From positions 1-42,344 of the IMG/VR virus record IMGVR_UViG_3300045988_117928: a stretch of DNA of 42,344 bases; one strand, 5' to 3'. The DNA comes from a virus. The number at the start of each line of letters is the position of its first letter. The first letter of the stretch is position 1. A model generated the notes under the pieces. The model was not told the DNA's origin and searched no databases. It saw only the letters and a list, made by a program, of their open reading frames with translations. This document shows, piece by piece, positions 2,135-41,102 of the stretch. A program made the position numbers and the translations under genes.

Positions 2135-2347
2135 GTGCAGAGTTACAGGAATCGTAGTGGCGATGTCGTTATCGATGAGCATTTTCTCGATGAGGACGTG
2201 TTTGTGACTGCTACCAGTCAGAAGGTCACGTGCCCGGTGTCTGTCTATTTCGGTGACAACAGTCACGATATGACCTCAGCAGAAGCTCGCTGGCTCGGAA
2301 CCGCCCTGATCAAATCAGCGAACCTAGCCGAAAGGGGAGAGGAGTGA
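2135..2347 (+). CDS. Hypothetical protein
   Basis: GTG at 2135 is preceded by AAGGAG at 2124-2129. In frame with track ORF 2099-2347. Confidence 0.35.
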   Translation: MQSYRNRSGDVVIDEHFLDEDVFVTATSQKVTCPVSVYFGDNSHDMTSAEARWLGTALIKSANLAERGEE

Positions 2348-3279
2348 CACAGCTTCAAATCCCCAACCGGCTGCACGTGGTGAAAGACCCGGCGCCACCC
2401 GGCACACCAGAGTGGGCTCGCCTGGTCACTGCGTCGAAGGTCGCCGGCATCGTCGGCGAGTCCGCCTACGCGACGCCATACAGCGTGTGGAACACGATGC
2501 GGGGCATCAGGGTTGAGCCTTCCGGCATGGAGGACCGGTTCTTGACTGGCCACGCGATGGAGCATGCCCTGGCCTACTGGTGGGCGCAGAAGAACCCAGA
2601 CTGGCGAATATCAAGGGGAGAGGTGCAGGTCACCAACCCGCACCTACCGTTCCCTAACGCTGCCACGCTTGACCGCATCGCGACCAGGAAAGGCCACGTC
2701 CGTAGCCCGAAGCATTCCCGTTGCGTGCAGTTCAAAACTGTTAGTGACTGGGAGGAGTATCAGAATCTGACGCCGGAGACGATTCCAGCGGATTGGCTCG
2801 TCCAAGAGACCATCGAGATGTTGTTCTCCGGGCTAGTACAGATGTCTGCGCTGATCGTGGTGTGCGGGCCGTTCTACGAGTGGAAGCAGCTGGAAGTGCC
2901 GTGGCTACCCGAGTTCGCCGTCGAGCTCGTTGAGTCGACGGAACACCACCTGGAGCTTGAGGAACCACCAGCCCCGACGGCGCCGAACGATTACAAGATC
3001 GCGAAGCTCCGGCACCCGGATATCGACGATGACGCCGCACCGGTGACCATCGACCATGCCACCGCTACCGAGTGGGACGAGACCAAGACCGCGGCAAAGC
3101 TTGCTGGCCGCATGAAGCGCACGGCGGATAAGCACGCTGAGGTGGCCGGGGCGAAGCTACTGGAAGCGATGGGTGCTGCCGCGACCGCCATCAACCCGGA
3201 CGGGTACGTCATCGCTAAGCGTGTCGCCACGAAGAAGGGCGTGCAGCTACGTCACGTGCCGCTACCGGAGGAGAAATAA
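2344..3279 (+). CDS. YqaJ-like viral recombinase exonuclease (lambda Exo / PD-(D/E)XK family)
   Basis: 311 aa. N-terminal TASKVAGIVGESAYATPYSVW...GHAMEHAL and the ...VQFKT pattern match YqaJ phage exonucleases. Sits immediately upstream of the RecT gene (exo-annealase pair). Confidence 0.75.
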   Translation: MTQLQIPNRLHVVKDPAPPGTPEWARLVTASKVAGIVGESAYATPYSVWNTMRGIRVEPSGMEDRFLTGHAMEHALAYWWAQKNPDWRISRGEVQVTNPHLPFPNAATLDRIATRKGHVRSPKHSRCVQFKTVSDWEEYQNLTPETIPADWLVQETIEMLFSGLVQMSALIVVCGPFYEWKQLEVPWLPEFAVELVESTEHHLELEEPPAPTAPNDYKIAKLRHPDIDDDAAPVTIDHATATEWDETKTAAKLAGRMKRTADKHAEVAGAKLLEAMGAAATAINPDGYVIAKRVATKKGVQLRHVPLPEEK

Positions 3280-4245
3280 ATGACACAGAAACCAACCACC
3301 ACAACTACCCGCGCTGAAAACAGTGCGGGTTTTCCTATCCCAGAAGGAGAAACCATGAACCTACCAGCGACAACAGGAAACCAGGGTGCCCAAATGCCGG
3401 CGCAGACGCTCATGCAGAAGGGCGTCGAGAAACTCCGCCAGCACGCTGAGCTCAAGCAAATGGCATACGACTACGCCGAGTTCATCACCAAGACCGGAGC
3501 GTGCCCAGCGATCTATAAGAACAAGCCGATGGATGCCGCGGCAGCGATTATCCGCGGCACAGCCCTTGGTTTCGACCCAGACGGCGCACTCGAAGCGTTC
3601 TTCGTCATCCAAGGCAAGACTGGCATGTACGCCCGAGCGATGATTGCCGTCGCAGAAAACGTTGGCTGCCGAGTGTGGGAAGAAGAGGCCACCGACGACT
3701 CGGTCACATGGTGCGGTATCCGCCCAGGCGATGACAAGGTCGAGCGTGTCACGTGGACGATGGAACTCGCTGAACGCGCAGGGTACACGCGGAATGCGAA
3801 GTACAAGACGAATCCGCGTGAGATGCTGCGCGCGAAGTGCCAGGCTGAGCTTGCCCGTATCGTCGCCCCAGGCGCATTGATGGGGTTGGTGTCGGAAGCG
3901 GAACCGGATGCGCATAAGCCGGTGCGTGCTGAGGCAACACGGGTTGATACCCAGCAAGGTGGCGCGTTGGGGGCGTTGGAGGCGGCACGACAGCGAGTCC
4001 ACGCACGCCGCCAACCAAAACCAGAACCGGAACCGGCGCAGGACGCGGACGTTATCACTGATGATGACCCGGAGCTGTTAGCTGCTGTTGTCGACGAGTA
4101 CCTGAGCGAGATTCCGAAGGCCCAGTCGCAGGATGAGGTCACCAAGATCATGAATGACGCCAAGGAAGACGGGCTGCCGCAGGAGCAGTTCGACACGGTT
4201 CGCCAGGCAGCTAAGGCACGTTGGGAGGAACTCAACAATGCGTAA
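3280..4245 (+). CDS. recT: RecT-family single-strand annealing protein
   Basis: 321 aa. Directly follows the YqaJ exonuclease gene in the classic RecET/Red-like arrangement. Acidic C-terminal tail. Confidence 0.7.
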   Translation: MTQKPTTTTTRAENSAGFPIPEGETMNLPATTGNQGAQMPAQTLMQKGVEKLRQHAELKQMAYDYAEFITKTGACPAIYKNKPMDAAAAIIRGTALGFDPDGALEAFFVIQGKTGMYARAMIAVAENVGCRVWEEEATDDSVTWCGIRPGDDKVERVTWTMELAERAGYTRNAKYKTNPREMLRAKCQAELARIVAPGALMGLVSEAEPDAHKPVRAEATRVDTQQGGALGALEAARQRVHARRQPKPEPEPAQDADVITDDDPELLAAVVDEYLSEIPKAQSQDEVTKIMNDAKEDGLPQEQFDTVRQAAKARWEELNNA

Positions 4246-4648
4246 CCCGAACCTTGTAGTTATTGGCGGCAACCTGGGTGGTGACGCGAGGTACGCGGTC
4301 ACGCAGTCCGGCAAAGAGGTTGTGTCGTTCTCGGTTGGGCATACCAGGTCGCAGTTTAATGAGCGGTCCAATTCCTGGGAAGAGGCCAACACAACCTGGT
4401 GGAACGTCACCTACTGGGGTAGTGACAGGGAAGATCTACAGCGCCTGTCTGAGCAGTTGACACGGGGCCGTCGTGTGATTGTGACCGGGCGTGCTGAGCA
4501 GCGCCCGTATACGACGAAGGACGGCCGCGATGGTGTCTCTCTGGACCTGCTGGCTTCCACGGTGAGTTTGGTGCCGAAGATTGGGCGTGACACTGCGGCG
4601 TCGAATACTGCTGCGGGGTTTGATTCCTCTGCTCAGCCGCCGTGGTAG
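4238..4648 (+). CDS. ssb: Single-stranded DNA-binding protein
   Basis: ATG at 4238 overlaps the recT stop. The OB-fold sequence MRNPNLVVIGGNLGGDARYAVTQSGKEVVSFSVGHTRSQF...WWNVTYWG...RVIVTGR is SSB-like. Gly-rich acidic tail. Confidence 0.8.
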   Translation: MRNPNLVVIGGNLGGDARYAVTQSGKEVVSFSVGHTRSQFNERSNSWEEANTTWWNVTYWGSDREDLQRLSEQLTRGRRVIVTGRAEQRPYTTKDGRDGVSLDLLASTVSLVPKIGRDTAASNTAAGFDSSAQPPW

Positions 4649-4663
4649 GAGTGACGCCACCGT

Positions 4664-4954
4664 ATGAGTATTCCCGCCGTCAGGTGGGTGACTAAGGATG
4701 TTAGAGGTATTACCACTACGGAGCGGGCAGTGCTTTACATGCTCGCGGATATGGCCAGTGAGCGGGACGGCCTGCAGCAGGCGTGGCCGTCTGCGGCGAC
4801 TATCTCAGAGTCGATTGGTATCAGCCACCGGACGGCGTACCGGGCTCTAAATTCGTTGGAGGAAAAAGGGTTTCTTGCCCGTGGGGATCAGAGTCTGGCC
4901 GGCAAGATTCGAAGCGACCGTAGGCCGATTGTGTGGTGTCTGAAAACACCATGA
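4664..4954 (+). CDS. Winged-HTH protein resembling replication-initiator N-terminal domains
   Basis: 96 aa. The segment AVLYMLADMASERDGLQQAWPSAATISESIGISHRTAYRALNSLEEKGFL is an HTH_36-type DNA-binding domain. Lies immediately upstream of the iteron tract. Confidence 0.55.
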   Translation: MSIPAVRWVTKDVRGITTTERAVLYMLADMASERDGLQQAWPSAATISESIGISHRTAYRALNSLEEKGFLARGDQSLAGKIRSDRRPIVWCLKTP

Positions 4955-5245
4955 CGGGGTGACACCGATGTCATGCCGTAGCGTTTTCACGACCTGACAC
5001 TGGTGACCGAACGACCTGACACCGGTGACCGAACGACCTGACACCGGTGTCATACAAAGCAGTAATAGAAGCTAATAGTTAACCCCGCTCGCTCCGCTCC
5101 GCTCACTCCGTTCGCTGCGCTTCGCTCCCTGTAAGACTTCCCGAAGCGGTAAATATCCCGCGGCATGACACTGGTGACATACCGCCACACACCCACCCCG
5201 ACACACAGCAGCGCCACCACTGGCACGCCCACACAACCCATATCG
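4955..5245. repeat. Iteron/ori-like noncoding tract: 3 tandem 22-bp repeats, palindromic TGACACCGGTGTCA sites, a CGCTC pentamer array and a CA-rich segment
   Basis: gacctgacac(t/c)ggtgaccgaac occurs three times at 4991-5056. The perfect palindrome tgacaccggtgtca is at 5039-5052, with related sites at 4960-4973 and 5164-5180. cgctc-type pentamers run about 5086-5130. Confidence 0.6.
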
Positions 5246-5246
5246 A

Positions 5247-5272
5247 CCGCGCTCTCGCAGCGCGGTTTTTTT
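5247..5272 (+). terminator. Rho-independent terminator
   Basis: ccgcgct-ctcgc-agcgcgg: a 7-bp perfect stem followed by TTTTTTT. Confidence 0.65.
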
Positions 5273-5289
5273 CATGCAAGGAGAAAACA

Positions 5290-5664
5290 ATGAGACGAAA
5301 CAGGGCATCCGCCAAAAAAGCCGGAGCCGCCTTCGAACGCCAAGTAGCTGACTATCTAGCCGCGCATGTTGATGACCGCATCGACCGCCGAGTCAAAACC
5401 GGAGCCAACGACTGCGGAGACATCGCCGGAGTCCGCACCCCCTGGAACGACCGCGTAGTCATCGAATGCAAAAACACCACCCGCATGAACCTCGGGTCAT
5501 GGATCAACGAAGCGGAAACCGAGCGGGTCAATGACGGCGCGTACATCGGCGTGGTTGTCCATAAGCGCCACGGCAAGGGCGACTCGGCGCAGCAGTTGGT
5601 GTCGATGACCCTGGAGACGTTCGCGAAGCTGTTGGACGGCAAAACCGGAGAAGATGCGCTGTGA
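5290..5664 (+). CDS. PD-(D/E)XK / VRR-NUC-like nuclease, putative Holliday-junction resolvase
   Basis: 124 aa. The motif GDIAGV...DRVVIECKNTT...LGSWINEAETERVNDGAYIGVVV matches D...E-x-K nuclease and VRR-NUC patterns. SD GGAGAAAAC upstream. Confidence 0.5.
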   Translation: MRRNRASAKKAGAAFERQVADYLAAHVDDRIDRRVKTGANDCGDIAGVRTPWNDRVVIECKNTTRMNLGSWINEAETERVNDGAYIGVVVHKRHGKGDSAQQLVSMTLETFAKLLDGKTGEDAL

Positions 5665-5690
5665 GCCGATTTAAGACACTGAATATCAGC

Positions 5691-5756
5691 ATGTGGGCAT
5701 GGGTGGCGCTCGGCCTGTCCTGGTCGCTCTACGAGCACGCTAGGGGGCAAAAATGA
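5691..5756 (+). CDS. 21-aa hydrophobic micro-ORF (MWAWVALGLSWSLYEHARGQK)
   Basis: In the gap between 5664 and 5753. Its stop overlaps the next start (ATGA). Very tentative. Confidence 0.15.
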   Translation: MWAWVALGLSWSLYEHARGQK

Positions 5757-6043
5757 GCAACCGACACGTGTGGAGCAACATTGACCCCGATGGTCAGCGT
5801 GTTTGGAACGTCACCACCTACACCAAAGACAAGTACACCTCCCAGACGCTCCCAGAATGGCCCCGCTTCCAAGGCTGGAAGGACGCGGTTGCCTGGGCGC
5901 TGCATCTGTATTCCATCGGTGAAGCGCCTGTCGATGACCGGCGGACGCGGAACCGTGACGCTGATTGGCCGTGTCTGACCTGCAACCGATGGTCAACCAA
6001 CTGCTGCAACCCGTGGGAAACACCCCAAGAACACGACGACTAG
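5753..6043 (+). CDS. Hypothetical Trp/Cys-rich small protein
   Basis: 96 aa. SD AGGGGG upstream. C-terminal CLTCNRWSTNCCNPW Cys cluster. Confidence 0.4.
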   Translation: MSNRHVWSNIDPDGQRVWNVTTYTKDKYTSQTLPEWPRFQGWKDAVAWALHLYSIGEAPVDDRRTRNRDADWPCLTCNRWSTNCCNPWETPQEHDD

Positions 6044-6052
6044 GAGCACAAA

Positions 6053-6289
6053 ATGACACCAGAACAAGCACGAAAACTACTCGCCGGAATGACCACCGAG
6101 TATGCGATTCAAGGAAGCTACGGAGACCCCAAGGAATGGTTCAGGCTCACCGAGTGGCAAGAAGATATGCCACCCCAAGGAACGCTTCGCGCTCTCGTCG
6201 ATGAGGACACAGGCGAACGGTGGCAAATCGACACACGCATCGTTGTCCGCTACGTCACCGCACCACAACCACTAGGAGAAAACCAGTGA
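6053..6289 (+). CDS. Hypothetical protein
   Basis: 78-aa ORF. SD GGAG upstream. Confidence 0.4.
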   Translation: MTPEQARKLLAGMTTEYAIQGSYGDPKEWFRLTEWQEDMPPQGTLRALVDEDTGERWQIDTRIVVRYVTAPQPLGENQ

Positions 6290-6383
6290 CCATCGACATT
6301 CTGATTCAGCTACTCACTGACCCCGGTTTCGCTATCGGCTACCTGGGCGAAGCCGCAAACCACCTCATCAACGGAGCACCACT

Positions 6384-6686
6384 ATGAGCATTATGAAACG
6401 CGCCACTAGAATCATCGAGATTGCCACGCGAGGAGCCCGCACCATCGACGGGCACCCCCTGAAGATTAGCGCCGATACCGCACGGAACATCGCAGAAGCC
6501 CTGGATGATGAGGGGCTCATCATGCCGGGGCATTCTGATGAACCAACGATGATATGGGGGCGGCGAGAGAAAGACGGCCGCATTATTTGGATGGGGGCAG
6601 ATACCCTCGCGGAACGCTTAGCCCGCGAGTCTGGGCGGGGAGTCGCTCGCTATATCGGCCCCATAGCCACCGTAGGGGAGCGGTGA
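6384..6686 (+). CDS. Hypothetical protein
   Basis: 100-aa ORF in the early operon. Confidence 0.4.
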   Translation: MSIMKRATRIIEIATRGARTIDGHPLKISADTARNIAEALDDEGLIMPGHSDEPTMIWGRREKDGRIIWMGADTLAERLARESGRGVARYIGPIATVGER

Positions 6687-6688
6687 CG

Positions 6689-6841
6689 ATGAACCACGTG
6701 ATTGAGCTCCCGGACGATGACGGCACCGGTTTCGACGCGGGCGACCTCGGCACCGCCTGGCTCCCATATTCGGAGCCCCGCGCACAAGACCTGGAAGCCC
6801 TGGCCGTAGCGCTCATCCAACACGCCAAGGACATGAAATGA
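6689..6841 (+). CDS. Hypothetical acidic small protein
   Basis: ATG at 6689, in frame with track ORF 6554-6841. Coupled to its neighbours. Confidence 0.3.
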   Translation: MNHVIELPDDDGTGFDAGDLGTAWLPYSEPRAQDLEALAVALIQHAKDMK

Positions 6842-6981
6842 CCGACAAACCCCGCGTGTGGAAAGCCGGGCACAACTGCTGGGCAGTCACCACCACCTAC
6901 TACTGCGAAGAACTCGGCGAGATGGTCTACACCACCCGGCTGTTCACAACCTGGCAACAAGCAATCAACTACGCCGTGTAA
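6838..6981 (+). CDS. Hypothetical small protein (MTDKPRVWKAGHNCWAVTTTYYCEE...)
   Basis: 47-aa ORF whose start overlaps the upstream stop. Shares a VW...W.VTT.Y motif with the 5753 protein. Confidence 0.3.
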   Translation: MTDKPRVWKAGHNCWAVTTTYYCEELGEMVYTTRLFTTWQQAINYAV

Positions 6982-7119
6982 CAGGACGAACGATGACCGA
7001 CGTGCTCGCGCTATGAGTACTACGGGTCATGGGGCCGGAGCATGGCTCTACCGAGCCAACGACGTGATTACAAGCGGGTAAAGTATCCTCCGATTGAATC
7101 ACGAAGAAGGGGGATCTAG

Positions 7120-7944
7120 ATGTGCGGGTTCCTAGTAGAGAAGCCAAAATGGTCGAAAAATAGCGTTCGGACAATGAGCACTAGGATTCGCCATGGAGAC
7201 CCATATGACGAAGATTTGTTCTGGCAAGTTATCGAGCGGGCAGAGACCATTAATGAGCACGTCACACCTATCGTCAATGACGTCGTAGCCACCGCTGGAT
7301 TGACAGAGCTAGAGCCCGGGGATGATTTGCTAGACCCGGAGTTCAACACAGGAGTGTTTGTCCTGTCGTCGAGAGCGAAAACCAAAACAACAACCATCGA
7401 GAAGCTGAAGCGACAGAAAACTCCTATTGATCGAGTAGATGACATGTCAGGGATTCGAATCGATGCGGCGATCACGCTCACCAAACAATCGACACTTGCA
7501 CTGGAGCTGGCAGATGCGCTGAAAAATGCAGGTGCGACAAGATGCAGAATAAAGGATCACCGCGGCCAGCCGCAGTCAGGGTATCGGGCAGTGCACGTGG
7601 TCGCAGAGTTCCCGGCCGGGCGCGTAGAAGTACAGATCCGTACGGCGATGCAATCATTATGGGCGAACACGTACGAAGTACTTGCGGATAAATTAGGCAG
7701 ATGCATCCGATACGGAGACTGGGAGTCTCTAGAGTCGCCTTTGCACCGAAAGTGGGTAGAGCTCCTACATGAGCTATCAGATGTCATCTACGAATTCGAA
7801 GAGTCTGTTGACCACTTTAAACACTTCGGTCGTGAGTCTATCGCGCAGGAGGAAGCGGAAGAGAGAGAGCAGCATCATTCAGAAATAGTGAGGAAAATTA
7901 AGGACCTACTGGGTAGGATGAGACCAGACGTCCCCACCTACTAG
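7120..7944 (+). CDS. RelA/SpoT-homolog small alarmone synthetase-like nucleotide pyrophosphokinase (toxSAS / Phrann gp29-like)
   Basis: 274 aa. Synthetase-domain motifs SGIRID...GYRAVHVV...VEVQIRTAMQSLWANTYE match the G-x-R, GYRS-H and EIQIRT-Q-WAE blocks of RelA/SpoT synthetases. The gene sits in a clearly lower-GC island (about 48-50% vs 62%). SD GAAGGGGG upstream. Confidence 0.7.
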   Translation: MCGFLVEKPKWSKNSVRTMSTRIRHGDPYDEDLFWQVIERAETINEHVTPIVNDVVATAGLTELEPGDDLLDPEFNTGVFVLSSRAKTKTTTIEKLKRQKTPIDRVDDMSGIRIDAAITLTKQSTLALELADALKNAGATRCRIKDHRGQPQSGYRAVHVVAEFPAGRVEVQIRTAMQSLWANTYEVLADKLGRCIRYGDWESLESPLHRKWVELLHELSDVIYEFEESVDHFKHFGRESIAQEEAEEREQHHSEIVRKIKDLLGRMRPDVPTY

Positions 7945-7958
7945 AAGCGAGCAGTTTA

Positions 7959-8159
7959 ATGACCGGTTTCTTGATTACGTACCGTAAGTCTTCGGGTCAC
8001 GTAAAGGTTGAGTCGTTTCCATCTATGGCGGAGGCGACGCGCAAGCGTCTGCTACTAGACCGAACGAACGATAACCCAGACGTGGAGATTGTAACTGTAG
8101 CGAGCCGAAGCGAAGAGCATCTGAAGCAGTCTCATCGACGATACTTTGCCGCAGCGTGA
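7959..8159 (+). CDS. Small protein downstream of the alarmone synthetase (possible cognate antitoxin/regulator)
   Basis: 66-aa ORF within the same low-GC island, 14 nt after the synthetase stop. Confidence 0.35.
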   Translation: MTGFLITYRKSSGHVKVESFPSMAEATRKRLLLDRTNDNPDVEIVTVASRSEEHLKQSHRRYFAAA

Positions 8160-8231
8160 CTGTAGTTGCGCGACCGTATTGACATCTGAACCACCACTCT
8201 TGCTGTAACCCATACAGCAGAAATGTAAGAA

Positions 8232-8262
8232 GCCCGCAGCCTGGTTAACTCCAGGTGCGGGC
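8232..8262 (+). terminator. Hairpin after the low-GC cassette (weak terminator)
   Basis: gcccgcagcctgg-ttaact-ccaggtgcgggc imperfect stem. Only a weak T tract follows. Confidence 0.3.
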
Positions 8263-8390
8263 TTCAGCCATACCTAAAACAACCAGCACAACAACACACC
8301 AACCCCCACGTCACCCGCACCCCGGGATGAAGACATGGGGGTTATTTTTATGCCCACCAAACACACCCCCGCCCCTTGCCGAAGGACCCC

Positions 8391-9014
8391 ATGCCACCAC
8401 TAACACCCGCACAAATAGAACAACTAGGCCGCGCACTAACCGCCATCGAAACAATGGCACCCACCCTCACCGACATGATGACCCCCTCACCACCAGCCTC
8501 CGGGGTCAACACAGGGCGCCCACCAAAGACCCGGCAATCCCGCCCACCACTACCCATCCACCTACTAGACATCGAGTACGCAGCCGAACTATGCCTATGG
8601 GACTGGGCGCAGGCGCTAGCCTACGAAATCCAGTGCCAGCCACCAGCCAGCCGGCGCCTCGAGTGCATAGCTCGCTGGCTCCACGATCGCGTACACGACA
8701 TCGCTGAACGCGCATGGGCAGACACACTGCTCATCGAAGTTGAACACCATCGCCGAGTGATAGGCGATAGGGTGAGTCCACCTGAGCCGGTAGCGCGGCG
8801 GGAGATTCCGCAGCAAGGCTCAGCACGACAAGTCGCCGACGCACTCGCAGTACTCGGCGTGCGCGTCAGTCACACCTCACTGAGGAAGTGGGCGAAGCAA
8901 GGCGAGATACCAACAACACTCAGCGACGAAGGCGTGGAACTCTTCACCATCACAGACTGCATGCGCGCAGCCGCAGCACATCAAAGTGGCGACGACACAC
9001 GGTCGACAGGGTAG
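8391..9014 (+). CDS. Hypothetical regulator with Pro-rich N-terminus and C-terminal HTH-like segment
   Basis: ATG at 8391, in frame with track ORF 8376-9014. The C-terminal stretch ARQVADALAVLGVRVSHTSLRKWAKQGEIP resembles an HTH. Last gene before the packaging module. Confidence 0.4.
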   Translation: MPPLTPAQIEQLGRALTAIETMAPTLTDMMTPSPPASGVNTGRPPKTRQSRPPLPIHLLDIEYAAELCLWDWAQALAYEIQCQPPASRRLECIARWLHDRVHDIAERAWADTLLIEVEHHRRVIGDRVSPPEPVARREIPQQGSARQVADALAVLGVRVSHTSLRKWAKQGEIPTTLSDEGVELFTITDCMRAAAAHQSGDDTRSTG

Positions 9015-9282
9015 AACATCATGACCTGCGGTTTACAGTCCGTATGCTAAGCTACGCTTGACTGAAGCGCATGCTCTTAAACCATCTCATTTGAGATTGT
9101 GGTTTGAGAGCTTTTGCTTTACGTCAACACATTCACGATTGCCTAACACGAGTTCCGCTAACGGCAACAAACGGTCGCGGTAGAAAACCACAGAGTTTCA
9201 CCTGGACGGCAACACCCCTCCAGTAACCCCTAGAGGCCAGCCGGTAGCCCCCAGCCGCCACTCGCCCCAGGAGGTACCAGAC

Positions 9283-9582
9283 ATGCCAGGGTGGAAGTCG
9301 AACTCCCAGGGCCCCAGATCCAGAGGCGTACCAAAAGCCTTAGCAGACCAAGTCATGGCGCGCGATCACTACGAATGCCAAGCACAACTACACGGCTGCA
9401 CTGTCATCGCCAACGAAGTGGACCATGTGGTGCCGGTCTTCGAAGGCGGCCAAGATGAGTTAGAAAACCTCCGGGCTATCTGCTCGTCATGCCACAGGAA
9501 AAAGACCGCCGGGGAAGCCACCCGCGCCCGGCAGCGACGCCGCCAGCCCATATGGGCCAAGCCCCACCCAGGTCTACTGTGA
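9283..9582 (+). CDS. HNH endonuclease (packaging-associated)
   Basis: 99 aa. HNH motif: DHYECQ...HGC...EVDHVVPVFEGG...NLRAICSSCHRKKT. SD CCAGGAGG upstream. Positioned just before TerS/TerL as in HK97-like phages. Confidence 0.85.
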   Translation: MPGWKSNSQGPRSRGVPKALADQVMARDHYECQAQLHGCTVIANEVDHVVPVFEGGQDELENLRAICSSCHRKKTAGEATRARQRRRQPIWAKPHPGLL

Positions 9583-9839
9583 GGGGTGGGGGAGGACCCT
9601 CGTTTCTAGGGTCTGGCCAGGGCGGAGGGCATTGCTTCTGAGTTTGTGTACGGGTTCCAGTGTTTCGGGTGAGGGGGCGTAATTGGCGGCTGTGGTCGCT
9701 TCTGGCTGGTTTTTGCTGGGGTGGTGCTGAAAGTTGGCATAGGCGAGTTTTTAGCGCCGCTAGTGGCGTGACCATACTGTTACGTTCTATAGGTGCTGGT
9801 AGGTCGCATAAGTCGTAACGCAGATGGTAAAATGAAGGT

Positions 9840-10427
9840 ATGAAAACCACCTGTGACCAGTGCGGATGCGACTTCGATGCCACCAACCGGCGCGGCATCA
9901 CCCCACGCTTCTGTTCTACCGCTTGCCGCCAAAAGGCCTACCGTGCCCGCCAGCGCAACCGCTACCCACAGGAGATGACCAATGCCTGTCGTTGGGCTGC
10001 AGCCGACGGGAAACGCCCCATGCAGGCCAACGGTAAGCCAGCGTCATCAACCAAGCCAGAAACATGGGCGCAGTTCCGTGACGTCAAAAAGAAGCCGCAC
10101 GGTTTCATGCTCGGTGGCGGGTTCGCATGCATCGACCTGGACAACTGCTTCATTAACGGGCAACTCCAAAAATGGGCACGCCGAATCGTTGACGCCGCGC
10201 CGGGCGCATTCATTGAGCGCTCAGTCTCCGGCAAAGGACTCCACATCTTCGGATTCCTACCGGAAGGCAGGGGGCGCAACTACGGATGTGTCGAGGTCTA
10301 TTCGAATGCCCGGTTCATTCGGACAACATCAGACGTTTGGACAACGGGCAATCTAGTAAATCTTTCCAATGCAGCTTTGACCGTCCAGGCGATGAGTGCC
10401 GCGGGGGAGCTGCCGAAGAAATCATAA
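9840..10427 (+). CDS. Zinc-ribbon plus Prim-Pol-like domain protein
   Basis: 195 aa. N-terminal CDQCGC...RFCSTACRQKAYRARQ zinc ribbon. The central stretch PHGFMLGGGFACIDLDNC...ERSVSGKGLHIFGF resembles the hhDhD and SGxGhH motifs of primase-polymerase (Prim-Pol) domains. Confidence 0.45.
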   Translation: MKTTCDQCGCDFDATNRRGITPRFCSTACRQKAYRARQRNRYPQEMTNACRWAAADGKRPMQANGKPASSTKPETWAQFRDVKKKPHGFMLGGGFACIDLDNCFINGQLQKWARRIVDAAPGAFIERSVSGKGLHIFGFLPEGRGRNYGCVEVYSNARFIRTTSDVWTTGNLVNLSNAALTVQAMSAAGELPKKS

Positions 10428-10439
10428 GGAGGTGCGCCG

Positions 10440-10874
10440 ATGCCAGGGCCAGTACCAAAGCGGTCGGATCAGCGTCGCCGCCGAAATAAACCTGATGGGC
10501 TTCCAACAGTGAAGGCAGCGGGGGCGGGCTCGGTGAAGCCGTTAGCGGAAGACCGTAACTGGCATATCAGCGCGAAGCGTTGGTATCGCAGCTTAAAGAC
10601 CTCTGGGCAGTCGGTGTTTTTCGAACCATCAGACTGGGCAGCCGCACACATCTGCGCGACGATCCTGTCTGATGAAATGAAGCGGCCGGAACCGGTCAGG
10701 GCGAACATCATCGCGCAGGTTAACTCGATGATGGACTCACTGCTGACCACAGAAGGGGCGCGCCGACGGCTGCGGATTGAGCTGCAGCGCGCCGATACGG
10801 ATAAGCAGCTTGACGACAATACGCAGGCCGCCATTTTGATGATGGATAGGTACAAGAAGAACTTGGCCGGTTAG
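10440..10874 (+). CDS. Terminase small subunit
   Basis: 144 aa. The N-terminus MPGPVPKRSDQRRRRN is characteristic of actinophage P27-family small terminases. SD AAGGAGG upstream. Immediately precedes TerL. Confidence 0.7.
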   Translation: MPGPVPKRSDQRRRRNKPDGLPTVKAAGAGSVKPLAEDRNWHISAKRWYRSLKTSGQSVFFEPSDWAAAHICATILSDEMKRPEPVRANIIAQVNSMMDSLLTTEGARRRLRIELQRADTDKQLDDNTQAAILMMDRYKKNLAG

Positions 10875-10896
10875 GTGGAAAGGCGGTGACGGTCCG

Positions 10897-12519
10897 GTGG
10901 TCGCCGCCGCAGATAGACTTATCACGTTGCCGGAGGGTATTCCGGAACGCACCCTCGGATGGAACGCCCTCGCATGGGCAGCAAAATACCTACGCCACCC
11001 CAACGGCATCCGTGCTGGTAAGCGCTGGGAGTTCACGCGCGAGCAGGCGCGCTTTATCCTGTGGTTTTACGCGGTCGATGATGAAGGCCGGTTTGTGTAC
11101 TATCACGCGGCTCGTCGGCTGGCTAAGGGCTCGGGTAAGTCGCCATTCGCAGCCGTGATGGCGCTTATTGAGCTGCTTGCTCCTGTCCGGCTGGACCATT
11201 TCGACGACAATGTCCTTGGTGGTTGTGTCGGCAAACCGCAGCCCATGCCGCTTGTGCAGATTGCGGCGGTCTCCCAGGACCAGACCGAGAACACTATGCG
11301 TATGGTTCGAGCGATGGTCGCTAAGCGCGCCGCACCTCAGCTCAACCGTGACTACCAAATCGATGCGGGTAAAACACAAATCAATGTGGAGCCAGCAGGG
11401 AAGCTGGAAGTTATCACGTCGTCGGCGGCGTCGGCTGAAGGTGCGGAAGCGACGTTCATCATCGGCGACGAGCTCGAGCACTGGACGAACTCTAACGGCG
11501 GCAATGAACTGCACCGCACGCTGCTGGATAACCTCGCGAAGTCCGGTTCCCGAATGCTGGAGACACTCAACGCCTGGAAGCCAGGCACCGGCTCGGCCGG
11601 GGAGGAAACATTCGAAGCCTGGACACTGCAGGAAGACGGTCGCACTAAGTCTGACCGCAAAATCCTCTACGACGCTCGCCAAGCCCCACCAGACACTGAC
11701 CTCGCTGATGAAGCCAGCCTGCGCGCCGGGCTGGCTTTTGTGTATGAGGATTGCCCGTGGGCTGATCTGGACGCGATTGTGGCGCGTATTTGGCACCCGA
11801 AGGCGCGGCCTGATGATTCGAAGCGGAAGTATTTGAACTGGCCAACTGCGTCGCTGGATTCGTGGTGTGATCCGCAGGACTGGGCGCAGATGTCCAGGCC
11901 CGACCGTGAACTCGTTGACGGTGAGCAGGTTGTTCTGTTTTTCGACGGTTCCTTGTCTAATGACCACACCGCGTTGGTTGGTTGCTGCATGGACGATGGG
12001 CATGTGTTCACCGCTGGCGTGTGGGCACCGCCGCCGGACGACGTCGTCGACGTCGAGGCGGTGGAGGCGGGTGTGCAGCGGGCGTTTGACCGCTTCGAGG
12101 TGCTGGCATTCTTCGCCGATGTCCGTGAGTGGGAGAGCTTCGTCAAGGTGGATTGGCCGGAGCGCTACGGCGACCAGCTGCGCCTGTGGGCAACACCTGG
12201 GGCGCGGAACCCGGAGCCGATTGCCTGGGACATGCGCAGCAAGGACTTTCCGTTCACGCAGGCGTGTGAGCTTGCGGCCGCCGAAATTGTGCAGCATGCG
12301 TTCACCCACGACGGCAACCCGCTTCTGAGTGAGCATGTGCGCAACGCTCAGCGGCATCTCGGCCGTTATGGCGAGACGGTGCGGAAAGAGTCACGCGCAT
12401 CACAGAAGAAGATTGACGCGGCAGTCTGCATGATTGGCGCTCGCATGGTCTACCGCATGGTCAAATCCGACCCGTCACTTAAGGCAGAGCCGGTCGATGA
12501 CACGGCATTTTTCTACTAG
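10897..12519 (+). CDS. Terminase large subunit
   Basis: 540 aa. Walker-A-like region LAKGSGKSPFAAVMAL. Nuclease-domain acidic residues in the C-terminal half. Position after TerS. Confidence 0.9.
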   Translation: MVAAADRLITLPEGIPERTLGWNALAWAAKYLRHPNGIRAGKRWEFTREQARFILWFYAVDDEGRFVYYHAARRLAKGSGKSPFAAVMALIELLAPVRLDHFDDNVLGGCVGKPQPMPLVQIAAVSQDQTENTMRMVRAMVAKRAAPQLNRDYQIDAGKTQINVEPAGKLEVITSSAASAEGAEATFIIGDELEHWTNSNGGNELHRTLLDNLAKSGSRMLETLNAWKPGTGSAGEETFEAWTLQEDGRTKSDRKILYDARQAPPDTDLADEASLRAGLAFVYEDCPWADLDAIVARIWHPKARPDDSKRKYLNWPTASLDSWCDPQDWAQMSRPDRELVDGEQVVLFFDGSLSNDHTALVGCCMDDGHVFTAGVWAPPPDDVVDVEAVEAGVQRAFDRFEVLAFFADVREWESFVKVDWPERYGDQLRLWATPGARNPEPIAWDMRSKDFPFTQACELAAAEIVQHAFTHDGNPLLSEHVRNAQRHLGRYGETVRKESRASQKKIDAAVCMIGARMVYRMVKSDPSLKAEPVDDTAFFY

Positions 12520-13968: not shown

Positions 13969-15186
13969 ATGCCAACGCAGGACGCGAAACTCCGTGATAT
14001 CCAACGCCGACTACAGCGTGACGTTGCAGCGAAGATTGATGAGTTCGGTGTGCCGATGGACACGGACGCGGTTTATGACATCACCGTTGAGTTGCACCCC
14101 ATCGTCGTGAAATACCGACAGGAGGCCTACCGCGCCTACGTCGAGCAAATGGGACTCGATATGGCGCAGCTCGGTTTAGAAGTAGCCCCAGCACGAATCC
14201 AAGGCTACGGCCCCCACGCCACCTACGACGCACTGGCTAGAGCCGCCGGTTTTGGAGAGAAACCATCAAACATCATCCTCGAGCTCGTTGACGATGAGAC
14301 CAAGGAACTCATCAAGAAATCCGTACCGGCCTTTGCATTCCCTAATCACCCGCGAGTCATCGAGCAGATGAGCGCACGCCTGACCCGCACCCTCATGCGC
14401 CATACCCTCAACGCCGGCCGAAAAGCAGTCGCAGACACCGCACACCTCGGAAGAGTCCGCAACGCAACAACCAAACGCCCAATCGGACGCCGAATCGGCT
14501 ACGCCCGAGTACTCACAGGACGAGAATCCTGCGCTTTCTGCGCAATGCTCGCCTCTCGCGGCCCCGTCTACTCAGAAGATACCGCCACGCGCCGGGCTGA
14601 TGGGCGTCGTTATCACGATGGGTGCGACTGTCGTGCGGTTCTTGTTATTGAGGGGCAACCGTGGGAAGGGGAGCGGGAGTTTCATCGGTTGCAAGCAGCC
14701 TGGCGGGAGGCAACATGGGAGGACGGGCGGCCTGTCGATAATCAGTGGAATCGGTGGCAAAAGGCGGTGCACTCAGGGAAAGTCAAGTTGAGGGCAACCA
14801 GTGAAACGCAAAGACAGGGAAAGTTAATTCTTAACGGAGTTAAGCCTGCTGCTCATGAGACGAAAACATACAATTTTTTGGTATCTCAGGGCCATGTTGT
14901 TGAGCTAATTCCGCGAAGTAATACTAGTAAAACTGCAGACTGCATGATCGACGGCATCAAGGTAGAGATAAAAGCTCCACAAGGAAGTGGTAAAGAAACC
15001 ATCTATCAATTGGTGAGAAACGGCAGTAAACAAAGTGCGACTCTAATTATTGACCTCCATCGGTCTAGCATTCCAGTTGACGAAGCAATTCTCCAGGTAG
15101 ATAGAGCGATGGCACGGTATACTCGAGTTAAGCAGGTAACTATTATCACTCGTGATCGGAAGGTGGTGAAGAAAACTCGTGGCTGA
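13969..15186 (+). CDS. MuF-like head morphogenesis protein fused to a C-terminal polymorphic-toxin-like domain
   Basis: 405 aa. Residues about 1-270 are SPP1 gp7/MuF-like, with the conserved CAFC...HDGCDC block. The C-terminal ~130 aa are encoded by a sharply lower-GC segment (about 14790-15186) carrying a D...E-I-K (ADCMIDGIKVEIK) nuclease-like motif. Confidence 0.75.
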   Translation: MPTQDAKLRDIQRRLQRDVAAKIDEFGVPMDTDAVYDITVELHPIVVKYRQEAYRAYVEQMGLDMAQLGLEVAPARIQGYGPHATYDALARAAGFGEKPSNIILELVDDETKELIKKSVPAFAFPNHPRVIEQMSARLTRTLMRHTLNAGRKAVADTAHLGRVRNATTKRPIGRRIGYARVLTGRESCAFCAMLASRGPVYSEDTATRRADGRRYHDGCDCRAVLVIEGQPWEGEREFHRLQAAWREATWEDGRPVDNQWNRWQKAVHSGKVKLRATSETQRQGKLILNGVKPAAHETKTYNFLVSQGHVVELIPRSNTSKTADCMIDGIKVEIKAPQGSGKETIYQLVRNGSKQSATLIIDLHRSSIPVDEAILQVDRAMARYTRVKQVTIITRDRKVVKKTRG

Positions 15187-15547
15187 CAGTACTTCTTTTG
15201 AATCTGATGCAGGAATTAGAGACGTAATTAATCTCTTCAAGCAAGTCGGAGAGTGCACTGCTCTTTCTGTTGATGAAGATGATGACTTGACAGTTCGGTT
15301 TGGAACTCCAGGCGGGGCCTACGTCACTGCTTTCTGGGATTTGAAGCCGGATATCGACGAGTATGAAACCGTGGTCGATGTGTATGAGCAGTCAGACAAA
15401 GGGGCAGCTTCACGACTTTTTAAATATGTGGCTACAGCTTTTGATGATAAAGCCGTATTACGAGCACCTGATTCGGCAGAAGTTATTGCGAGAGCCAGTG
15501 GCGGCCATATCGTATGGGAAAACAATACAAGTAATGGTCTGAATTAA
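15179..15547 (+). CDS. Acidic small protein, putative immunity protein for the MuF C-terminal toxin domain
   Basis: 122 aa. GTG start overlaps the MuF stop (GTGGCTGA). Low-GC like the toxin domain. Acidic composition. Confidence 0.45.
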   Translation: MADSTSFESDAGIRDVINLFKQVGECTALSVDEDDDLTVRFGTPGGAYVTAFWDLKPDIDEYETVVDVYEQSDKGAASRLFKYVATAFDDKAVLRAPDSAEVIARASGGHIVWENNTSNGLN

Positions 15548-15653
15548 ACACTTATGTATTTGAAAATACCGCTAATACGGTGAACTTTAAGTACTGCTAA
15601 ATAGCCATGGAGTAGCCACATTTGCGGGAGTGCGAGTCCCCGCCATGGCACTA

Positions 15654-15688
15654 CCCCGCACCACAAGAAGTGGTGGCGGGGTTTTCTT
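15654..15688 (+). terminator. Rho-independent terminator
   Basis: ccccgcaccac-aagaa-gtggtggcgggg stem followed by TTTTCTT. Confidence 0.6.
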
Positions 15689-15722
15689 ATGCCCGAAAAC
15701 AGATTTACCCAGGAGGTAACTC

Positions 15723-16235
15723 ATGTCGGAGGAAAACACCGCCACCGAAGCCAGCGCCGAGCAGGTGGCGCACACCGGAACCCAGGAGGAACCGGACAAT
15801 ACTGATGCGCAGCCCGTGCCCGAGCACTTCCGAAAGGAACTCGAGGAAGCACGACGCGAAGCAGCACGCTACCGCACCGAACGCAACGAACTGCGAGCAG
15901 ACGCGGAGAGCTGGCGCACACAGCAGGAAGCAGAAAAGACGGAACTGCAAAAGGCCACCGAGCGCCTAGCCAGCCAAGAAGACGCGTTCAAGGCTCTGGA
16001 GGCCGAAAACACGCGCCTTCGACTGGCAGCCCGCTACGGCATCGCCGAGGAAAACCACGACCTTCTCGGCTCAGGCAGCCCAGAAGAAATCGAAGACCGC
16101 GCCAAGCGGCTCGCAGCGATGCAGAAGGAACAGACCCGACCACCGTCAAAAACCCCGGTGGAGCAACTCGGTGCCGCAGTCCGTTCGGAGCCGGAAACTC
16201 CACCAAACGCATTCCCTGCAGGATGGCCAGTCTAA
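15723..16235 (+). CDS. Scaffolding protein
   Basis: 170 aa, highly acidic, coiled-coil (EELEEARREAARYRTERNELRADAESWR). SD AGGAGG upstream. Precedes the capsid genes. Confidence 0.65.
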   Translation: MSEENTATEASAEQVAHTGTQEEPDNTDAQPVPEHFRKELEEARREAARYRTERNELRADAESWRTQQEAEKTELQKATERLASQEDAFKALEAENTRLRLAARYGIAEENHDLLGSGSPEEIEDRAKRLAAMQKEQTRPPSKTPVEQLGAAVRSEPETPPNAFPAGWPV

Positions 16236-36167: not shown

Positions 36168-37244
36168 TTAGACCACTCCACGCAGCTGCTCATCCATCAC
36201 ATCCGCCACCGCATCCAAATCATCATCAAAAAGATCTGCATACGTGTCTAGCGTCATAGCCGCGCTCGCATGCCCAAGCTGAGACTGCACAACCTTCACC
36301 GACGCGCCAGACCCCACCATCAACCCCGCGGCCACATGCCGCAGGCCATGCGGAGTCACATATGGGAACTTCTTGTTAGCCTTCATGACCCGCTCTAGGT
36401 TCCCGTAGTACCAATCCGGCTTACTCGGTGTCGGCAGTGGCCCACCATCACGTGCCGGCCACAACAGCGCATCCGGCAGCTTGTCTTTCAGCAGTGGCTC
36501 GAGCATCCGCATAACCTTTTTCGGCACTGCTACCGTGCGCTGCTCGTGCGTCTTTGGCGTGCCGATGATGACTTTGCTGCCGACAGTGACAGCATTACGT
36601 TCAACACTGATACGCCGTTTGAGAACATTGACATCACGCACTCGCAGCGCTGCGGCCTCGCCCCACCGCAGCCCAGTGGTAGCCAAAAGCCAGATGAGCT
36701 CAGGGCGCTTGGAGTCTGTGGCTAGGGTCTTGACCTGCTCGGCGGTCAGGTACACCTTTTTCGCTTTCGGTTTGCGCGGCAGGCGCACACCACGGGCTGG
36801 ATTAGTGGCCAGCACTCCGTCCCCAACAGCGACATCGAGAACCTGCGCCAGGCAAGCATGAGCCTTCCTCACCGTCGACGCACCAGCGCTAAAATCGGCC
36901 AGCCAAGTTTGCACATCGGAGCGCTTAATCCGACCAATCTGCCACCCACCCCAGTACGGATCCACATGCACACGCCAGGCCGACTCAGTGGTTCGATACG
37001 TCGACGGCTTGAGGTGCGTCTGCGCCGCCAGCCACGCAGTCCCAAGATCATGCACGGTGCGGCGACGTTCCATCTCCGGCGCCCAGGTGCCATGTCGCAT
37101 AGTGATGGAGTTTTTATCCGCCCATGCTTGTGCTTCGTCTTTGGTGCGGAAGCCCTGCTTGGTGCGGCTTGTGCCGTCGGGTGCGCGGTACTGCACCCGC
37201 CACCCGTAGCCTTTTGCTTTCTTGTAGCGCTTAATGCTGGCCAT
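36168..37244 (-). CDS. int: Tyrosine integrase
   Basis: 358 aa. N-terminal arm-binding-like domain and core-binding domain. The catalytic region ...HGLRHVAAGLMVGSGASVKVVQSQLGHASAAMTLDTYADLF carries the R...HxxR...Y pattern. Confidence 0.9.
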   Translation of the reverse strand: MASIKRYKKAKGYGWRVQYRAPDGTSRTKQGFRTKDEAQAWADKNSITMRHGTWAPEMERRRTVHDLGTAWLAAQTHLKPSTYRTTESAWRVHVDPYWGGWQIGRIKRSDVQTWLADFSAGASTVRKAHACLAQVLDVAVGDGVLATNPARGVRLPRKPKAKKVYLTAEQVKTLATDSKRPELIWLLATTGLRWGEAAALRVRDVNVLKRRISVERNAVTVGSKVIIGTPKTHEQRTVAVPKKVMRMLEPLLKDKLPDALLWPARDGGPLPTPSKPDWYYGNLERVMKANKKFPYVTPHGLRHVAAGLMVGSGASVKVVQSQLGHASAAMTLDTYADLFDDDLDAVADVMDEQLRGVV

Positions 37245-40325: not shown

Positions 40326-41102
40326 ATGTCAGAACTGATTCCGATTCAGGACAGCGGTGGGGTTCAGGCGGTCATGGGCCGCGACCTCCACGCATTCCTG
40401 GAAGTTGGTGCCGAGTATCGGCACTGGTTCCCACGTATGGTCGCATACGGATTTGAAGAGGGGAAAGACTACACGGTCAAAATTGACCGGGTACAAGACT
40501 CTCTCGGGCGTGAGCGCGAAGCCATGAACCATGTCATCAGTCTGGATATGGCGAAGGAAATTTCCATGATCCAGCGCACCGACAAGGGCAAGCAGGCTCG
40601 TCAGTACTTCATTGAGTGTGAGAAGCGGTACCAGGCTGGTGAGATGAGCGAGCTTGATGAGGCGAAGCTTGTCCAGAGAGCTCTGCAAATCACCTACCGC
40701 CAAGTGCGGGAACTGGAAGCTGTAAACGCTGAAATGCAGCCGAAGGCTAGCTACTTCGATGAGTTTGTGGCGGACGAGGATCTTATTCAATTCCGGACTT
40801 TGGCGAATCAGCTGGAGATTAAAGAGTCCGCGCTTCGTCAAATCCTGATTGACCATAAATGGATTTACAGGGTTGAAGGTAAGCGCTGGTCAAACAAGCG
40901 CAACAAGATTGTCAATGTTTATCAGTATCGGGCGTATGCGGAAAAGAAGCCTCTGTTCCGGTTGGTGCCTTGTCATGAGGCACCGCGGATTAATGGCGAG
41001 GTGCAGCAGTCGCTGAAGCTTACTCCGCGCGGGGCGGAGGCGGTCACGAAGGCTGTGAAGAAGTGGCTGCGGGGTCCGTCGGTGGAGAAGAAGTCAGCGT
41101 AG
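40326..41102 (+). CDS. Phage antirepressor (Bro-N / KilAC-type)
   Basis: 258 aa. The N-terminus MSELIPIQDSGGVQAVMGRDLHAFLEVGAEYRHWFPRMVAYGFEEGKDY is typical of AntA/KilAC antirepressors. Confidence 0.7.
   Translation: MSELIPIQDSGGVQAVMGRDLHAFLEVGAEYRHWFPRMVAYGFEEGKDYTVKIDRVQDSLGREREAMNHVISLDMAKEISMIQRTDKGKQARQYFIECEKRYQAGEMSELDEAKLVQRALQITYRQVRELEAVNAEMQPKASYFDEFVADEDLIQFRTLANQLEIKESALRQILIDHKWIYRVEGKRWSNKRNKIVNVYQYRAYAEKKPLFRLVPCHEAPRINGEVQQSLKLTPRGAEAVTKAVKKWLRGPSVEKKSA

Follow-up and report, generated by a model that had tools for sequence, protein, structure and literature searches.

The closest characterized relative of the locus analyzed in this study is the toxSAS toxin gp29 (PhRel) of the mycobacteriophage Phrann, which forms a toxin-antitoxin (TA) pair with gp30 (ATphRel). 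Gp29 is toxic and is neutralized by gp30, the two proteins were recovered together in pull-down experiments, and a Y143A substitution abolishes toxicity. When expressed from the prophage, gp29/gp30 blocks plaque formation, but not lysogeny, by phage Tweety, which is consistent with abortive infection, and Tweety mutants with altered repeat numbers in gp54 escape this block. The present analysis concerned a homologous cassette (about 7041-8265, plus strand) in a 42,344-nucleotide (nt) stretch of viral DNA, IMG/VR record IMGVR_UViG_3300045988_117928, which is hereafter called the window. The cassette comprises a toxin gene (7120-7944, plus strand, 274 aa, ATG start) and, 14 nt past its stop codon, an antitoxin gene (7959-8159, plus strand, 66 aa, ATG start). 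It is probably a bipartite type II PhRel:ATphRel module, an accessory moron in the genome of a temperate Corynebacterium-type siphophage, that targets tRNA and protects the prophage.

PhRel and CapRel enzymes, including the CapRel of M. tuberculosis, inhibit translation specifically, and both subfamilies are now classed as tRNA 3'-CCA pyrophosphokinases. Pyrophosphorylation of the tRNA 3'-CCA end has been directly labeled for FaRel2, PhRel2, and CapRel-SJ46. Antitoxins with a pseudo-zinc-finger domain (pZFD) block the ATP donor site of translation-targeting toxSASs, and the YXXY motif of CapRel and ATfaRel2 plugs this pyrophosphate-donor site. In contrast, the partners that neutralize producers of (pp)pApp, which are Tis1-like or SAH proteins, act at the acceptor site. 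In CapRel-SJ46, the pZFD doubles as a sensor of a phage capsid protein.

Identity of the toxin

A sequence-only reading of the window had assigned the larger of the two open reading frames (ORFs) to the RelA/SpoT synthetases, based on the motifs GIRID, GYRAVH, and VEVQIRT..QSLWA. Both ORFs were located where that reading had placed them, and all three motifs were present in the 274-aa protein (G111-I-R113-I-D115; G154-Y155-R-A-V-H159; V169-E170-V-Q172-I-R174-T175 ... Q178-S-L-W181-A182). The assignment was confirmed by a match to Pfam family RelA_SpoT (PF04607) of 42 bits (cutoff, 27 bits; E 1.3e-10). The protein also matched PHROG 4773 and positions 66-237 of the PADLOC candidate profile PDC-S33, of which no mention was found in the literature.

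An AlphaFold2 model of the toxin, built from 59 homologues, adopted the RelA/SpoT fold with high confidence (predicted local distance difference test, pLDDT, 91.8; predicted template-modeling score, pTM, 0.89). The top PDB match of this model in Foldseek was 7ZTB, the CapRel tRNA pyrophosphokinase of a Salmonella phage (E 1.2e-7, 285 aligned columns), which outranked RelQ, RelP, and the catalytic domains of Rel. In total, 43 PDB chains matched at E <= 0.001, and the matches listed were RelA/SpoT-homologue (RSH) enzymes throughout. Profile alignment to 7ZTB paired R85, R113, and Y155 of the toxin with R79, R116, and Y155 of CapRel-SJ46, in which the two arginines coordinate adenine and the tyrosine belongs to the G-loop. 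R85, K87, D108, G111, R113, G154, Y155, R156, H159, E170, Q172, and R174 were invariant across the 59 homologues. The core contained no frameshift, stop, or deletion, and the active-site deletion known from the inactive PhRel copy of phage Squirty was absent. Since its catalytic set is complete and invariant among homologues, with R85, R113, and Y155 aligned to CapRel-SJ46, the enzyme looks, from its sequence, catalytically competent. Its catalytic core (aa 79-200) is basic, with an isoelectric point (pI) of 9.9; this core is preceded by a helical region with a WSK...IRHG motif (aa 1-58) and followed by two long acidic helices (aa 207-267, pI 5.0).

Homologues of the toxin were found in only five records, representing four phages, among 50,697 annotated phage records: Phrann gp29 (39% identity, E 2e-32 by tblastn), WST1, Corynebacterium phage IME1320_01, and 'Pasteurella' phage PMP-GADVASU-IND. 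Megablast with the cassette as query matched none of the annotated phages, and the relatives found there were detectable at the protein level only. The wider family comprised 117 matches, mostly Actinomycetota proteins of 270-300 aa and with Phrann gp29 among them. Beyond its five closest relatives, with which it formed a distinct sub-clade, the toxin was at most about 40% identical to any protein. Over the core alone, identity was 56% to Phrann PhRel, 23% to CapRel-SJ46, and 28-33% to RelP/RelQ, and a neighbor-joining tree of this core nested the clade of the window toxin within a large actinobacterial clade that holds Phrann PhRel. These results identify the large protein as a RelA/SpoT-fold (toxSYNTH) toxSAS whose closest characterized relative is Phrann gp29; its assignment to PhRel follows the logic of the nearest characterized relative, in a comparison made without unfused actinobacterial CapRel references or subfamily hidden Markov models (HMMs).

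One of the annotated homologues showed a gap in its annotation. In KY203335.1 (PMP-GADVASU-IND, locus L004; region 2501-3952), the 287-aa open frame of the toxin homologue (about 2501-3181) is unannotated, and only the small partner is annotated (3255-3509). Some 370 nt 3' of the pair there is a tRNA-Lys(CTT) gene. Both the cassette and the neighboring genes, which encode a VapE-type primase, an SNF2 helicase, an HNH protein, and terminase, resemble those of Corynebacterium phage IME1320_01, so that the stated Pasteurella host looks odd.

Identity of the antitoxin and pairing of the two genes

The small downstream protein had been put forward in the sequence-only reading as a candidate antitoxin, with Phrann gp29/gp30 as an analogue. 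Consistent with both proposals, it was 38% identical to Phrann gp30. It matched PHROG 22117 over its full length (E 3e-27) and was 56-59% identical to the small ORFs behind the toxin in IME1320_01 and PMP-GADVASU-IND; the antitoxins of five phage pairs shared 18 invariant columns. Its AlphaFold2 model (pLDDT 93.7) showed a beta-beta-alpha-beta topology plus a short helix, the arrangement that has been described for the pZFD antitoxin domain. The 66-aa protein is thus a homologue of the gp30 antitoxin, with a predicted pZFD-like fold. It showed no similarity to SAH or Tis1; the window as a whole was not screened for SAH.

The antitoxin matched positions 266-329 of PDC-S33. Since the toxin and the antitoxin match different parts (66-237 and 266-329) of one PADLOC profile, the pair corresponds, by profile matching, to a protein that occurs elsewhere as a fusion and is split here. 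A word-indexed protein search with the 66-aa query retrieved only four near-identical proteins. An exhaustive HMMER search for the family yielded 180 cluster representatives, nearly all stand-alone proteins of 66-100 aa; two exceptions (P0216, 370 aa; P0255, 324 aa) carried the antitoxin domain at the C-terminus of a RelA_SpoT protein. These fused relatives, like PDC-S33, span both proteins and point indirectly to a toxin-antitoxin complex. A repetitive 512-aa protein with seven stretches matching the antitoxin profile (P0134) was rejected as a relative: no Pfam domain was found in it, and it is apparently an artefact of its repeats.

Searches against PDB sequences with phmmer, using either the small protein or a 70-sequence profile, gave a best E value of 0.07, to an unrelated protein, and a search with the fused relative P0216 gave nothing at E <= 0.001. 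The family was linked to solved antitoxins only through structural and profile-profile comparison. With hhalign, the antitoxin family aligned weakly to residues 299-363 of full-length CapRel-SJ46, a stretch that takes in both pZFD and switch region (E 1.8e-4, probability 48%). CapRel numbering was confirmed against the published mutants L307, V338, L339, A341, A351, Y352, and Y355. In this alignment, S58-H59-R-R-Y62-F63 of the antitoxin was paired with A351-Y352-P-N-Y355-F356 of CapRel-SJ46. Among 70 members of the antitoxin family, H59 and R61 were invariant and Y62 and F63 were at least 90% conserved; Phrann gp30 carries the same motif (HSRYF). Based on this pairing and conservation, the family appears to have an H-x-R-Y-F version of the YXXY plug, for which the H59-R60-R61-Y62-F63 codons of the window (8133-8147, plus strand) would be the counterpart.

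To establish how regularly the two genes occur together, HMMs derived from the toxin and antitoxin alignments were run on fetched loci. An antitoxin-family ORF lay directly downstream of the toxin, on the same strand and usually 3-27 nt away, in 73 of 75 genome loci (one per species). The other two loci were one in which both domains occupied a single open frame and one on a contig that ends before the site. All 14 close viral matches (toxin profile E <= 3e-40) likewise had a downstream antitoxin ORF. Weaker viral matches (n = 35), mostly open frames of 330-440 aa, look like fused CapRel-type proteins; an antitoxin-like domain was present in frame in two of them and was undetected in the other 33. 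Toxin and antitoxin ORFs were intact in every relative. In the window, the two ORFs do not share a frame, a stop codon and 14 nt lie between them, and all close relatives showed the same split. According to the survey, a split architecture combined with an HxRYF plug motif is all but universal in the Actinomycetota.

Cassette boundaries and mobility

The limits of the cassette were set by homology and by a hairpin at its 3' end. The closest relative, on a metagenomic phage contig (L005), was 96.6% identical across 6847-10000. A second close relative occurs in an element of Corynebacterium sp. ACRPX (L007, JAKRMP010000007.1), to which homology (91.5% at the nt level) begins at 7041, 79 nt 5' of the toxin ATG; further upstream the sequences are unrelated, and in the ACRPX element a RusA gene is the upstream neighbor of the cassette. 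The conserved leader at 7041-7119 (plus strand) therefore marks the left boundary of the mobile unit in this comparison. Within it lie a Shine-Dalgarno-like AAGGGGGA (7107-7114, plus strand), 5 nt ahead of the toxin ATG, and, as read from the sequence, TAAAGT (7079-7084, plus strand), a putative -10 element. Homology to the more distant loci L008-L010, as detected by blastn, spans only 7450/7568-8195.

Downstream of the antitoxin, a GC-rich hairpin without a T-tract (8229-8265, plus strand) forms a 15-bp stem with one bulged base, with a free energy of about -31 kcal/mol (z = -6.1 versus shuffled sequences). A hairpin had also been noted in the sequence-only reading. This structure is likely a transcription terminator or 3' stabilizer that closes the cassette. 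Its stem is kept in ACRPX, where substitutions are confined to the bulge and loop, and non-homologous hairpins occur 3' of the antitoxin in WST1, IME1320_01, PMP-GADVASU-IND, and L009/L010. A terminator consensus scan of 6500-9000 did not flag the hairpin, because it lacks a T run, and returned three matches, on the minus strand and at chance level.

The guanine-plus-cytosine (GC) content of the cassette was 51.2%, versus 58.7% for the window and 58.5-59.0% for the flanks. This dip (z = -2.9) was matched by just 1.8% of equal-sized segments. The sequence-only reading had described a low-GC island of 48-50% in a 62% GC genome; the dip itself held up, while its size came down to about 7.5 points. 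At third codon positions (GC3), the cassette genes had a value of 0.55-0.56, versus 0.62-0.80 in the other genes measured. The lowest-GC spot of the window is at 14701-15740 (46%), not in the cassette. Structural genes of the window are approximately 75% identical, at the nt level, to those of Corynebacterium phage Juicebox, in this respect the most similar phage, which lacks a homologue of the cassette. The limits of homology to ACRPX and L008-L010, the absence from Juicebox, the hairpins in relatives, and the lower GC3 together support the cassette as an accessory, horizontally moving transcription unit.

Minus-strand ORFs at 7116-7484, 7478-7657, 7557-7787, and 8055-8213 were also considered as genes. 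None received support, and plus-strand homology accounts for the region. Between the hairpin and the next ORF (8376-9014), the tract 8263-8400 is C- and A-rich and G-poor, e.g., CAACACACCAACCCCCACGTCACCCGCACCCC; GC skew falls to -0.37 there (400-nt windows), and the tract is kept in ACRPX as far as the contig end.

In ACRPX (region 2741-11202), the cassette is located in a different integrated element beside host genes. Genes for an integrase, two HTH_17 proteins, a primase-like DUF3987 protein, and RusA are found in this element, along with an ABC transporter pair of opposite orientation, and the toxin and antitoxin genes come after RusA. The ACRPX antitoxin has a TTG start that overlaps the toxin stop codon, and the deposited toxin annotation begins 12 codons late relative to the window and the family consensus.

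Genomic setting

Proteins encoded in the window include a tyrosine integrase (36168-37244, minus strand), an AntA/KilAC antirepressor (40326-41102), a YqaJ-like exonuclease (2344-3279) paired with a weakly matched RecT-like protein (3280-4245), and a single-stranded DNA-binding protein (SSB; 4154-4648). Together with the Juicebox-like structural genes, these features identify the window as a temperate Corynebacterium-type siphophage or prophage, and it looks like a complete, circularly permuted genome. With these lysogeny genes, and with the homology limits and GC3 described above, the earlier view of the cassette as a phage moron was upheld. The cassette is situated at the end of the early genes, in the same orientation as those upstream of it, and is followed by a 212-aa ORF, an HNH gene, and the terminase genes; the slot in relatives likewise comes after helicase or other early genes and ahead of terminase. 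An Rfam scan of the whole window gave no family above threshold.

A second locus in the window also encodes a toxin domain. A 405-aa head protein (13969-15186, plus strand) carries a Pfam VG15/MuF-like domain (aa 85-247, E 5.6e-22) and a C-terminal CdiA_C toxin domain (PF18451, aa 321-399, E 1.9e-13). It overlaps a 122-aa ORF (15179-15547, plus strand) without a Pfam match, a candidate immunity protein, and this gene pair occupies the lowest-GC stretch mentioned above. In L005, the same slot contains a 371-aa gene plus an 80-aa ORF. The differing genes suggest a swappable polymorphic-toxin tip, and 13969-15547 looks like a polymorphic MuF toxin accompanied by a candidate immunity gene, which would give the phage a second toxin module unrelated to the first.

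Mosaic structure and selection

Sliding nt identity placed a recombination junction inside the toxin gene (7615-7700, plus strand), just past the EVQIRT catalytic strand. Identity to L008/L009 was 0.50-0.66 in 7120-7660 and 0.81-0.94 between about 7660 and 8159, with the step completed within about 100 nt, and the protein alignment splits at the same place. Among the proteins P0003-P0005, the toxins were only 60-62% identical, versus 89-94% for the antitoxins of the group. The abrupt change within the toxin gene shows that the C-terminal helices of the toxin and the antitoxin are inherited as one unit, apart from the catalytic half. Its position corresponds to the boundary between toxSYNTH and the anchor plus pZFD that has been described for fused CapRel. 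Most simply, the junction can be read as the product of recombination in which the anchor helices stay linked to the antitoxin as a co-adapted unit.

It is tentatively proposed that, in the Corynebacterium-phage sub-clade, intragenic recombination past EVQIRT places this anchor-antitoxin unit on differing N-terminal and catalytic halves and thereby mixes effector and sensor specificity. Provided that tRNA specificity resides in the diverged half and trigger sensing in the conserved half, phages would mix both in a split toxSAS, which could be a route to escape phage-encoded tRNAs or anti-toxin counter-measures. No description of such half-swapping was found for PhRel or CapRel in the literature examined. 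The window, ACRPX, and L008-L010 form a natural 'domain-swap' series that can be used to map the halves responsible for trigger and substrate specificity.

The ratio of nonsynonymous to synonymous substitution rates (dN/dS) versus L009 was 0.07 for the antitoxin and 0.21 for the toxin, and the ratios versus more distant relatives ranged from 0.07 to 0.27. Versus ACRPX, the closest divergent relative, values of 0.60 (toxin), 0.94 (C-terminal part of the toxin), and 0.79 (antitoxin) were obtained from only 20.5, 7, and 3.5 synonymous changes, respectively. Since these synonymous counts are too small, the high ratios were not taken as positive or diversifying selection on a putative sensor surface.

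Proposed function and alternative explanations

By analogy with characterized relatives, the cassette most likely blocks translation by tRNA modification rather than by alarmone synthesis. In the lysogen, the small protein would bind the toxin, probably by docking on the acidic C-terminal helices that correspond to the 'anchor' region of fused CapRel. The predicted charges fit such docking (core pI 9.9, helices 5.0, antitoxin 9.7). The C-terminal H59-x-x-Y62-F63 turn of the antitoxin would then be inserted between R85 and R113 and block the ATP (pyrophosphate-donor) site. Infection by a heterotypic phage would supply a trigger that releases the antitoxin, upon which the freed toxin would pyrophosphorylate uncharged tRNAs at their 3'-CCA end, with ATP as the donor. 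Aminoacylation and translation would stop, and the infection would be aborted, thus protecting the lysogen population and the prophage. A tRNA-pyrophosphokinase function is suggested by the clade of the toxin, the pZFD-type antitoxin, the basic core, and 7ZTB as best structural match.

Several points weigh against this interpretation. No sequence signature separates tRNA-modifying from nucleotide-modifying toxSASs, and the substrate was therefore assigned from clade membership and antitoxin type. The core tree was a neighbor-joining tree without bootstrap support. The hhalign match that links the antitoxin to CapRel-SJ46 is weak, and the first Tyr of YXXY is replaced by His. For Phrann PhRel itself, translation inhibition and tRNA binding were found in the literature, but not a direct labeling assay. 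Toxicity, neutralization, substrate, and defense are extrapolated from relatives that are at most 39% identical. Moreover, the cassette stands in line with early lytic genes and not, as in Phrann, beside the immunity region, so that its expression in the lysogen is only presumed; a consensus sigma-70 scan of 6500-9000, which is insensitive to actinobacterial promoters, detected no promoter.

The sequence-only reading had envisaged an 'alarmone-based' defense module. Its toxSAS family assignment stood; its alarmone chemistry is probably wrong, because PhRel is translation-specific and binds tRNA and because pZFD antitoxins pair with translation-targeting toxSASs. A true alarmone toxin, which would make (p)ppGpp or (pp)pApp and cause arrest via alarmone signaling or ATP depletion, is accordingly unlikely here. 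Such a toxin would fit the RelA/SpoT synthetase domain, whose G-loop Tyr and catalytic residues are common to genuine (p)ppGpp synthetases. Furthermore, toxin profile scores versus RelP/RelQ are no worse than those versus CapRel, nucleotide acceptors are not excluded by any sequence signature, and Phrann gp29 was originally described as a putative (p)ppGpp synthetase. However, PhRel and CapRel affect translation only, whereas (pp)pApp producers act on transcription, translation, and replication at once. The affinity of PhRel for tRNA is sub-micromolar (dissociation constant of 825 nM for the Phrann enzyme), while FaRel binds 37-fold more weakly than FaRel2 and RelQ shows no binding. The partner modeled here is of the pZFD type that accompanies tRNA-targeting enzymes, rather than of the SAH/Tis1-like type that acts at the acceptor site of (pp)pApp toxSASs, and the best structural match is a tRNA pyrophosphokinase. 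Labels such as GTP pyrophosphokinase or (p)ppGpp synthetase should be avoided in the annotation of such genes.

Also rather improbable is a role in addiction or stabilization only, in which the TA pair would penalize loss of the prophage or persist selfishly, with no part in phage defense. The layout is that of a typical bicistronic type II TA locus with a 14-nt gap, the cassette is mobile among differing genetic backgrounds, and homologues are common in many Actinomycetota chromosomes with no obvious phage context reported. Nevertheless, both close analogues that are prophage-borne and have been studied, Phrann gp29/gp30 and CapRel-SJ46, defend against heterotypic phages. The fused-type profile PDC-S33 belongs to a database of defense candidates, and pZFD domains sense phage in CapRel. 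Addiction and defense are, moreover, roles that do not exclude each other.

A function in the lytic cycle is very unlikely. The cassette would then be transcribed with the early or middle genes and would modulate host translation or exclude co-infecting phages. Its orientation along with the upstream early genes, its place just ahead of HNH and terminase, the same slot in relatives, and the failure to detect either a promoter or an upstream terminator would agree with this function. On the other hand, the promoter scan would easily miss actinobacterial promoters, and a shut-down of translation would damage the phage's own late expression unless the toxin were fully neutralized. In addition, the cassette keeps its 79-nt leader in a different context and a hairpin follows the antitoxin in most relatives. 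The co-travelling leader and the terminator-like hairpins suggest that the cassette is transcribed autonomously, which is typical of morons expressed from a prophage. Finally, a decaying or inactive remnant, for which the inactive phage PhRel copies (Squirty) and the high dN/dS versus ACRPX could be cited, is hardly credible, since all catalytic residues are intact, the core is free of frameshifts, stops, and deletions, both AlphaFold2 models are confidently folded, and the ratios are low versus distant relatives, while those versus ACRPX rest on the small counts given above.

A tRNA-targeting, prophage-protecting PhRel:ATphRel module thus remains the probable interpretation. The cassette adds a well-supported system of this type from a Corynebacterium-type temperate phage to the earlier experimental examples, which came from a mycobacteriophage and from enterobacterial prophages. 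The occurrence of such systems in actinobacteriophages would not surprise a specialist, and a homologue in one Corynebacterium phage already bears the annotation 'GTP pyrophosphokinase'.

Comparison with known systems

Like Phrann gp29:gp30, the cassette consists of two same-strand genes, of which the small one is directly downstream, and both are accessory genes of temperate actinobacteriophages. The toxins are homologous (39% overall, 56% over the core; 274 aa here versus 292 aa in Phrann), as are the antitoxins (38%; 66 versus 71 aa), with the C-terminal H-x-R-Y-F kept. The host lineage, however, is of Corynebacterium type rather than Mycobacterium, and the Phrann pair is located between the lysis cassette and the immunity region, in contrast to the position at the early-gene end, before HNH and terminase, in the window. 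The C-terminal tail of the toxin is shorter here, and the strong hairpin behind the antitoxin has no counterpart in Phrann.

CapRel-SJ46 of Salmonella phage SJ46 is the best match among solved structures, and this match extends over the helices that follow the core. Both proteins have the N-terminal WSK..IRHG helix, R79/R116/Y155 of CapRel-SJ46 correspond to R85/R113/Y155, the pZFD aligns, in the weak hhalign match, to the small protein with the YXXY switch region at HxxYF, and both systems are prophage-borne. CapRel-SJ46 differs in being a single 373-aa polypeptide, whereas the two proteins of the window are split near CapRel residue 285; core identity is only 23%, and His replaces the first Tyr of YXXY. 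While CapRel-SJ46 is activated by a conformational change, the split system presumably requires dissociation of the antitoxin. FaRel2:ATfaRel2 of Coprobacillus sp. D7, a bipartite tRNA-pyrophosphorylating toxSAS TA system whose complex has been solved (8PU3), is also among the closest systems.

RelQ/SAS1 and RelP/SAS2 share the synthetase fold and the catalytic motifs. Unlike the toxin, they are non-toxic and have no antitoxin encoded alongside, RelQ does not bind tRNA, and neither the N-terminal WSK helix nor the C-terminal anchor helices are present in them; their profile matches begin at about profile position 63. The (pp)pApp toxSASs FaRel and Tas1 differ in their neutralizer, which is an SAH or Tis1-like protein instead of the 66-aa, predicted pZFD-type partner of the cassette.

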